Assembly (NCBI RefSeq): GCF_056712565.1
Contig: NZ_CM160072.1
DNA: 64,000 bases
Strand: one strand, 5' to 3'
Shown one piece after another: positions 12,230 through 16,343 of the stretch; within the stretch, counting starts at the first letter, position 1; each line of letters starts with the position of its first letter. The notes beneath the pieces were generated by a model. The model saw only the letters and a program-made list of their open reading frames with translations, was not told the DNA's origin and searched no databases. The translations under genes were made by a program, and so were the position numbers.

Positions 12230-15120
<2,891 letters not shown>

Positions 15121-15128
15121 GTAACCGT

Positions 15129-15192
15129 GCCGGATGCGGCGTGAACGCCTTATCCGGCCTACAAGGCCCGATAAGCGTTGCGCATCGGGCAA
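15129..15192. repeat. REP element pair downstream of ascB
   Basis: GCCGGATGCGGCGTGAACGCCTTATCCGGCCTACA followed by GGCCCGATAAGCGTTGCGCATCGGGCAA; REP-type palindromes. Confidence 0.8.
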
Positions 15193-15217
15193 TCTTGGGT
15201 TTGGCATCAGTCAAAAA

Positions 15218-15637
15218 TCAAAGAAACCATTCCGGCTTAACGCCAAATCGGGCTGAAAGTGCCTTAATGTGGGATATCGTCAGGGAACGTTGTCCAGATA
15301 AAATCTGACTGACCAGGGATTTAGAGCCGATTTCGTTCTTCAAATCCGCATAGGTCAGATTATGTTGATCAATCAGCGTACGAAGTAACGCCACGCCAAC
15401 CGGCATTGCTGCAACGGCTTTGTCGAACTCTGCAAACTTTTCGTTATTGTTTTCATATTCTGCAATGCGGCTCGCCAGAAAGTCGATAAGTGGATTGGTA
15501 TCATCTTCTTCAATCAAATATTCGACCAGTTCCAGTGCTTCACGATAATCATCTTCTGAGTCACTGCCTCCCAGAAAGGGGACTGCATTGACCAGTTCTC
15601 TTGTTGCTTTAACAGCGCGTGCAGCATTAGCAGTCAT
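15218..15637 (-). CDS. HigA-family antitoxin-like protein with C-terminal XRE-type HTH
   Basis: 139-aa ORF; C-terminal HTH (EIGSKSLVSQILSGQRSLTISHIKALSARFGV) and acidic helical N-domain resemble recalled E. coli HigA (YgjM) at roughly half identity by eye. Lies in a segment between ascB and hycI that I do not recall in K-12. Confidence 0.75.
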   Translation of the reverse strand: MTANAARAVKATRELVNAVPFLGGSDSEDDYREALELVEYLIEEDDTNPLIDFLASRIAEYENNNEKFAEFDKAVAAMPVGVALLRTLIDQHNLTYADLKNEIGSKSLVSQILSGQRSLTISHIKALSARFGVKPEWFL

Positions 15638-15662
15638 TCTTTGTTCTCTCTGTAGTATCGTG

Positions 15663-15848
15663 TCAGACGCTCACTTTTCTAAAATGCCATGTTTGCTCGG
15701 CATCATAAGGCATGGTCAGGAGAGGTTTCAGCACCCGCTTTTGCGCATATTCGCCGTCACTCATTGGCAGATATTCGGTAAAGCTGGTGGCCTGTGCAGG
15801 CAGCACTAAGCTCAATAAAAAAGCGCACATCCCTGTTCTGATGTTCAA
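15663..15848 (-). CDS. Hypothetical small protein with Sec-type signal peptide, co-oriented just upstream of the HigA-like gene
   Basis: 61 codons from TTG (55 from an internal ATG at 15830); predicted signal peptide with AQA cleavage motif; stop lies 25 nt before the HigA-like ATG. No similarity to HigB/RelE recognised. Coding status uncertain. Confidence 0.3.
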   Translation of the reverse strand: MNIRTGMCAFLLSLVLPAQATSFTEYLPMSDGEYAQKRVLKPLLTMPYDAEQTWHFRKVSV

Positions 15849-15872
15849 TTCCCTGAATTCCCTGATGGAGAA

Positions 15873-16343
15873 TTATTCTTCTTCCACCGCTAACTGCGCG
15901 AAGCCGCCATTCCCTTCCCAGCCTTCCAGTCGTTGATAAACGGTTTCTACCGCATCTTTAATCGGCTGGGTCATCGGGTAGTAAAAGCCGACGATATCCG
16001 GCTGGATGCCGAGAAAAATCACTTCGCCAATATCTTCTTTCAACTGGTCGATAAGATAGTTCAGCGGCATGTTATGGGTAGTCATCATAAACATCTCGGC
16101 GATGTCAGCCGGGTCGATGATGCGGATCTCGCCAGGGTTTAGCCCCATATCCGTGGCGTCGACAATAAGCAGCCGTGTCGGGCGCAGTTCGCGGATAGCG
16201 ACAATGTCGTTTTCCGGTGCGCTACCGCCGTCAATCACTACCCAGTTACCTTTCGGCGCGGCAGCGCACTTTTCCGCCAGTAGCGGGCCTGCGCCATCAT
16301 CACCCATCATGCTATTGCCAACACAGAGTAAAACGTCAGTCAC
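15873..16343 (-). CDS. hycI: Hydrogenase 3 maturation endopeptidase
   Basis: 156-aa ORF matching recalled HycI; last gene of the hyc operon. Confidence 0.92.
   Translation of the reverse strand: MTDVLLCVGNSMMGDDGAGPLLAEKCAAAPKGNWVVIDGGSAPENDIVAIRELRPTRLLIVDATDMGLNPGEIRIIDPADIAEMFMMTTHNMPLNYLIDQLKEDIGEVIFLGIQPDIVGFYYPMTQPIKDAVETVYQRLEGWEGNGGFAQLAVEEE

Follow-up and report, generated by a model that had tools for sequence, protein, structure and literature searches.

An orphan higA antitoxin gene between ascB and hycI of Escherichia coli, very likely the remainder of a decayed higBA toxin-antitoxin locus

The DNA analysed here is a window of 64,000 nucleotides (64 kb) from the chromosome of the Escherichia coli type strain ATCC 11775, with which it shows 100% identity over the queried interval, and the element in question is an antitoxin gene, higA, that lies without its toxin partner in the spacer between ascB and hycI. 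In the window, ascB ends at position 15120 and is separated from hycI by 752 bp, compared with 158 bp in a K-12 derivative (L005:1072-1229) and 123 bp in an O157 strain; the estimate of the original prediction, about 750 bp here against about 140 bp in K-12, was thus close to the measured values, and the other sequence facts on which that prediction drew were likewise correct. The spacer carries, on the minus strand, an intact gene for a 139-aa antitoxin of the K-12 HigA (YgjM) type (15218..15637; RefSeq WP_000126294.1), a 33-nt remnant of the toxin gene higB that comprises its last 10 codons and stop (15634..15666), and a 61-codon open reading frame (ORF; 15663..15848; RefSeq WP_015953052.1) that is the 5' fragment of a gene for an exported protein, here called hyp. 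A deletion junction, to which no strand is assigned, is located at 15666..15667. The gene hycI (15873..16343, minus strand), with which the formate hydrogenlyase operon ends, is separated from the truncated ORF by 24 bp, and the space between the 139-aa ORF and hycI is 235 bp (15638-15872); a 55-61-codon ORF with a signal peptide had been predicted in this space and is the one found at 15663-15848 on the minus strand.

The 139-aa product had been described as a HigA-like protein with a C-terminal helix-turn-helix (HTH) domain, and the searches bear out this description. Pfam placed an XRE-type HTH domain, HTH_3 (PF01381), at the C-terminus (residues 85-138, E = 7.9e-9), and a search of the PDB returned the K-12 HigA antitoxin (5IFG_B, E = 2.5e-35; 5YCL_A, E = 3.1e-35), with residues 9-138 aligned to chain residues 8-136, indicating homology over the full length of the HigA architecture, in which a helical toxin-binding part at the N-terminus is joined to an XRE-type HTH at the C-terminus. 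The NCBIfam matches of this protein were all sub-threshold; TIGR02607 (antidote_HigA, the short type) scored 14.4 bits, so far under its curated cutoff of 47.7 that membership was ruled out. The Rts1/Vibrio-type short HigA described by that model also has an XRE-type HTH and the toxin-first gene order, whereas the window protein falls in the longer YgjM-type HigA lineage. The profile searches that had been suggested for both ORFs succeeded for the 139-aa protein through HTH_3, although not through TIGR02607, and gave no family match in NCBIfam or PADLOC for the 61-aa product. In PGAP annotation, WP_000126294.1 is mostly named 'helix-turn-helix domain-containing protein', with some records named 'HigA family antitoxin'. 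Judged by its homology, the 139-aa protein can be assigned to the K-12 YgjM lineage of HigA, as a paralogue at a different locus.

The K-12 HigB-HigA system (YgjN-YgjM; 5IFG, 5YCL and 6KML) is the closest known system. Its antitoxin has 138 aa, against 139 aa in the window, with the same architecture, and the homology extends over the full length not only for the antitoxin but also for the toxin encoded by sibling alleles of the locus (match to K-12 HigB 5IFG_A, E = 4.5e-21); the intact alleles share with the K-12 system the 'reverse', toxin-first gene order, with the two genes overlapping by 4 bp. The window copy differs in lying at ascB-hycI rather than at rlmG-fadH and in the deletion of its toxin gene and promoter. 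In ATCC 11775, the rlmG-fadH interval, which is the canonical K-12 ygjNM site, is a spacer of 117 bp that contains repetitive extragenic palindromic (REP) sequence and no higBA (L020:18786-18902), and the type strain is without the K-12 copy.

The structure of the window became clear from its comparison with a full allele in strain 00_3305 (L004), which consists of hycI, hyp (253 aa), higB (103 aa), higA (139 aa) and ascB, with all of these genes except ascB on the minus strand. A global, base-level alignment of the two showed that the window is the full allele minus 1,032 bp (L004:3134-4165). Missing from the window are higB codons 1-93, the promoter of higBA together with a candidate operator, and everything in hyp beyond codon 61. 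The stop codon of the higB remnant overlaps the higA start codon (ATGA), and the ribosome-binding region of higA is kept inside the remnant. When the sibling HigB was used as a tblastn query against the window, only its residues 92-103 were aligned. The original prediction had named a HigB remnant alignable in another frame as an outcome that would count against it, and such a remnant exists: the peptide LTRYYRENKE* is encoded at 15634-15666, and the small ORF reads its own TGA stop out of frame from the same nucleotides. In the window, the HigB (RelE-fold) toxin gene that should adjoin and overlap higA on its 5' side is represented by this tail alone, and with higB codons 1-93 deleted the two intact genes of a functional type II toxin-antitoxin module are not present; in L004 and in strain TUM1223 (L002), higA is preceded by a gene for a 103-aa HigB with a 4-bp overlap. 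WP_000126294.1 was identical in the loci read, with or without higB, and was paired with HigB in both higB-bearing loci read (L002 and L004). The orthologue of this toxin in E. albertii matched the Pfam family HigB_toxin.

In the window lineage, one deletion of 1,032 bp has thus left higA whole, together with 33 nt from the end of higB and the first 61 codons of hyp. We consider it very likely that the locus is a decayed higBA toxin-antitoxin locus, in which an orphan HigA was left by deletion of the toxin gene through ordinary gene decay, and we found nothing that contradicts this structural account. An orphan antitoxin produced by toxin deletion had been among the explanations offered originally, and it is the one that stands, given that other strains pair this very HigA with a HigB and that the end of higB persists in the window.

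We also compared the synteny of the ascB-hycI junction across 5,426 complete E. coli genomes, to which all population counts given here refer, as had been suggested. This comparison recovered both toxin-paired higBA alleles and two higB deletion junctions. Apart from the full allele, the locus occurs as higB-higA without hyp (TUM1223, L002), as hyp and higA without higB (SCU-387, L003), as hyp alone with an IS3 element (L006), in the window arrangement (ATCC 11775, S88, ST131 and others), and as the short spacer of K-12 and O157. The higA gene was found in 2,508 genomes, always at a coverage of at least 80% and with only 5 copies under 95% DNA identity, and higB was present at the locus at a coverage of at least 80% in 1,092, leaving 1,416 genomes with an orphan higA. 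A 120-bp probe spanning the window junction was matched at a coverage of at least 80% in 834 genomes, and a probe for the second junction, that of the SCU-387 type (L003:2060-2180), in 583; the SCU-387-type deletion is confined to higB and its promoter, and hyp is whole in these alleles. The two junction counts add up to 1,417, and two independent higB deletions thus account for essentially all orphan higA copies, which together are found in about 26% of the complete genomes. The window junction and its 235-bp spacer were the same in all five window-type loci examined, indicating a single origin of this junction. The species offers a clean case of toxin loss with retention of the antitoxin, in which there are two independent events and a signal of purifying selection, and which bears on the debate as to whether orphan antitoxins are anti-addiction factors.

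That signal comes from the higA alleles themselves. Among ten alleles, 22 sites were polymorphic, of which 21 were synonymous and one was non-synonymous (R86H in L009). The window and ST131 copies, which have the same junction, differed at 7 synonymous and no non-synonymous sites, and the pair of alleles that carry the second deletion at 9 synonymous and no non-synonymous sites. This pattern argues for purifying selection on higA having continued after the loss of higB.

With regard to expression, the deleted segment of the intact alleles contains a promoter-like site for higBA (TTGTGA-17-TATAGT), the -35 box of which is overlapped by a near-palindrome, GTTTACAtatTGTGAAC, also written GTTTACATATTGTGAAC. 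This palindrome was read directly from the sequence, and it is kept between two otherwise divergent promoter regions; it is a candidate operator at which HigA may bind to repress higBA, and neutralisation of HigB by the window HigA is likewise a candidate activity. Because higA in the window has lost its own promoter, its transcripts probably arise by read-through that passes from hycI across the hyp head, and a terminator scan of the minus strand found no terminator-like site between hycI and higA. Translation would probably start from the ribosome-binding site preserved in the higB remnant, and the resulting HTH protein should still be capable of binding toxins of the HigB type. Neither the window nor the K-12 higBA site of ATCC 11775 yielded a HigB; the role for which HigA might most plausibly have been kept would therefore be the neutralisation of incoming HigB from plasmids or phage-plasmids, that is, anti-addiction.

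Homologues of HigB were found on 1,036 plasmid records, and for 515 of these the identity was 60-80%; the HigB-bearing plasmids were mostly from Klebsiella, Serratia, Escherichia and Enterobacter, and 303 were predicted to be conjugative. In the plasmid higBA modules sampled, both proteins were 78-79% identical to the E. coli chromosomal pair. Related genes also occur on phage-type replicons: the Enterobacter hormaechei phage-plasmid p60214CZ_1 carries higBA among phage tail genes (L021:1501-2228), with a HigA 78% identical, and Cronobacter phage JK004 encodes a HigB with 76.7% identity (MZ188976.1 39918-40226). Chromosomal anti-addiction of this kind has reportedly been described for the ccd system of Erwinia chrysanthemi, which is said to act against the ccd of the F plasmid. 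Like such orphan or anti-addiction antitoxins, the window antitoxin is intact in the absence of a cognate toxin and has related modules on plasmids (one plasmid HigA was compared, at 78% identity); it differs from them in that its anti-addiction role is a proposal drawn from sequence comparison. If HigA were actively maintained as a chromosomal immunity or anti-addiction factor against the 60-80%-identical plasmid HigB, the cell could lose or resist HigB-bearing plasmids and phage-plasmids. We put this forward tentatively, as a possible but rather doubtful explanation, and regard the reason for the retention of higA as a moderately interesting question.

Several observations weigh against a maintained function or against the selection signal on which it leans. 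The window lacks the native higBA promoter and, with it, the candidate operator GTTTACAtatTGTGAAC, of which no copy was found in the 64 kb at up to 3 mismatches, and the only promoter-like site upstream of higA is weak (9/12) and at the level of chance. In strain GPEC102 (L013:1501-1895), higA is frameshifted within a span shorter by 25 bp, and its loss is thus tolerated. The selection signal was drawn from 10 alleles only, and some of the synonymous variants are common to orphan and higB-bearing alleles; recombination, rather than evolution after the deletion, may lie behind part of it. Finally, no second HigB-like ORF or sequence was detected in the 64-kb window or at the K-12-type higBA site of ATCC 11775, with about 160 kb of the genome examined.

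The strongest rival to a maintained role is that orphan higA is a neutral relic without present function, which owes its intact state to the recency of the deletion or to renewal by recombination, and we regard this as quite plausible, though somewhat short of probable. The loss of promoter and operator, the frameshift in GPEC102, the variants held in common with higB-bearing alleles, which are compatible with recombination, and the lack of a cognate toxin nearby or at the K-12 higBA site all fit this explanation. It is opposed by the count of 21 synonymous against 1 non-synonymous polymorphic sites, and by the counts of 7 and 0 between two lineages with the same junction and of 9 and 0 within the second deletion class. 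In addition, all 2,508 copies retain at least 80% of the gene with the high identity noted above, and two independent deletions both spared higA precisely.

That HigA has been re-purposed to control the transcription of other genes, the hyp remnant or hyc among them, appears unlikely to us. The intact HTH under purifying selection would suit such a regulator. Reviews, with citations of Guo et al. (2019) and Soo & Wood (2013), mention antitoxins that control genes outside their own operons, and the role would resemble the regulatory roles reported for Pseudomonas aeruginosa HigA and E. coli MqsA. However, no operator-like palindrome was found in the 64-kb window at up to 3 mismatches, and the protein is identical in orphan and toxin-paired alleles and shows no sign of adaptation to a new target.

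We consider it very improbable that the segment entered a K-12-like empty site in recent times as an islet peculiar to certain strains. The original prediction had called it a strain-variable islet, and it is indeed absent from K-12, as it is from O157; if the higBA part is taken by itself, its TCAG flanks could pass for a 4-bp target duplication. The direction of change implied by that wording was misleading, however. In the 158-bp K-12 spacer, 25 of 25 nt match the 3' end of hyp together with the adjoining downstream sequence, followed by 13 of 14 nt that match the 5' end of hyp, and the stretches missing from K-12 are bounded by the microhomologies TCAG and ACATCCC, the latter of 7 bp. These matches identify the short spacer of K-12 as a double-deletion scar of hyp and not as the ancestral state. 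Furthermore, hyp immediately follows hycI in Salmonella enterica (L015), Klebsiella spallanzanii (L016) and E. albertii (L017), and the last of these has the whole hyp-higB-higA set in the same order as E. coli. Hence hyp was present in the region ancestrally, and the hyp-higBA set is older than the split between E. coli and E. albertii. The basic islet contains no integrase or transposase. In K. spallanzanii, the slot beside hyp (L016:3422-5814) is occupied by parDE and two symE toxin genes in place of higBA. The stretch just past the hyc operon thus has the look of a hotspot at which toxin-antitoxin genes integrate.

The 61-codon ORF starts with TTG, or is 55 codons long from an internal ATG, and its N-terminus resembles a signal peptide (MNIRTGMCAFLLSLVLPAQA|TS). 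Over 182 bp the window matches hyp at its 5' end. The 61-aa product shares 95% identity with the N-terminal part of full-length family members, and the last codons of the ORF coincide with the start of the deletion. Members of the hyp family are proteins of about 250 aa with a conserved core from D82 to R231; the window ORF covers alignment positions 1-61, and all core residues are gone. The 'small secreted peptide' is thus recognizable by alignment as the signal peptide of hyp plus 40 residues of a truncated gene, and the hyp head has the appearance of a secreted peptide because the signal peptide was retained. Two further suggestions of the original prediction, a non-canonical pair with a secreted partner and a regulator that controls a small exported peptide, are not supported, since the ORF amounts to codons 1-61 of a gene for an exported protein of 247-269 aa that was truncated by the deletion which removed higB. 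That the 61-aa exported peptide is a partner of HigA in a toxin-antitoxin-like pair is scarcely credible: the neighbouring ORFs share a strand with 25 nt between them, the signal peptide has been kept whole and the arrangement recurs in 834 genomes, but before the deletion cut this fragment from the 253-aa gene there was no such adjacency, the ORF matches no family, residues uniform in the intact Escherichia copies examined are replaced in it (S32G, A39V and G60S), and the identical HigA is coupled with a classical HigB in other strains. The apparent pair of HigA and a secreted peptide is a deletion artefact and should not be pursued as a new type of toxin-antitoxin system.

The 61-codon ORF is most likely without function. 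Its three amino-acid replacements in the window lineage, which are accompanied by 2-3 synonymous changes, are compatible with relaxed constraint in counts too small to decide the matter. Rare proteins of 202-209 aa, each from a single record (P0042, P0044 and P0045), have the hyp remnant fused in frame to HigA; they reflect either real 1-nt indels or assembly errors, and one of them bears the NCBI name 'HTH-type transcriptional regulator ygjM'.

The intact hyp gene, which encodes a signal-peptide protein of 247-269 aa, is the next gene after hycI in E. coli, E. albertii, Salmonella and Klebsiella. The copy in the full allele has 253 aa (L004:3586-4347, minus strand), and the orthologues are located at L015:4001-4810, L016:4001-4753 and L017:4001-4756. 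There is thus a conserved exported protein directly downstream of the hyc operon in Escherichia, Salmonella and Klebsiella, and K-12 is without it. Pfam gave no match for the 253-aa protein even at E up to 10. UniProt names the orthologues 'Periplasmic or exported protein', and distant relatives at 25-47% identity are annotated as 'FG-GAP' or 'VCBS repeat-containing protein'. AlphaFold2 modelled hyp with a mean pLDDT (predicted local distance difference test) of 42.8 from a single sequence and of 56.5 with 14 sequences, the latter model being confident only at residues ~35-160. In a Foldseek comparison of the hyp model with the PDB, nothing fell below E = 0.26, with weak matches to PliI and integrin, and AFDB50 yielded only the orthologues and the FG-GAP/VCBS repeat relatives, with poor root-mean-square deviations. 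A link of hyp to formate hydrogenlyase is possible. No paper on hyp was found, with no literature search aimed at this gene, and its loss from K-12 may be the reason for the apparent lack of study. For the antitoxin, the literature examined, which covered ascB, hycI and higA, orphan antitoxins of the HigA kind, HigBA of uropathogenic E. coli (UPEC) or B2 strains, and WP_000126294, yielded no paper that describes this locus.

The toxin-antitoxin pair of the sibling alleles also has a resemblance to the PD-Lambda-2 anti-phage system (PADLOC PDLC03979 and PDLC03982). The sibling HigB matches component A (E = 1.4e-14), and the window HigA matches positions 9-115 of the 402-position component B (E = 2.4e-14). 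Membership in PD-Lambda-2 was ruled out, as only the N-terminal quarter of the ~400-aa component B is covered and there is no third gene; the resemblance reflects shared HigB/HigA ancestry.

Further decay was seen at the locus in other strains (L006:101-1449 and L014:275-1255), with an IS3 element replacing higA, an IS621 element beside higA and a copy of hyp with an internal stop codon. The asc operon is also variable at the ascB-hycI junction. In ST131 (L007:66-1969) and in E. albertii (L017:5737-7121), ascFB is absent from the locus, and higA is followed by a hypothetical gene of 142-145 aa and then by hydN.

Just 3' of the ascB stop codon and outside the toxin-antitoxin remnant, the window has a REP pair (15115..15191, no strand assigned). 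The only Rfam matches of this pair were sub-threshold ones to the REP-derived naRNA4 on both strands, at 40.1 and 28.5 bits against a gathering score of 59.5. It is because of this REP pair (15115-15191) that the interval matched a median of 37 places per genome in BLAST searches.

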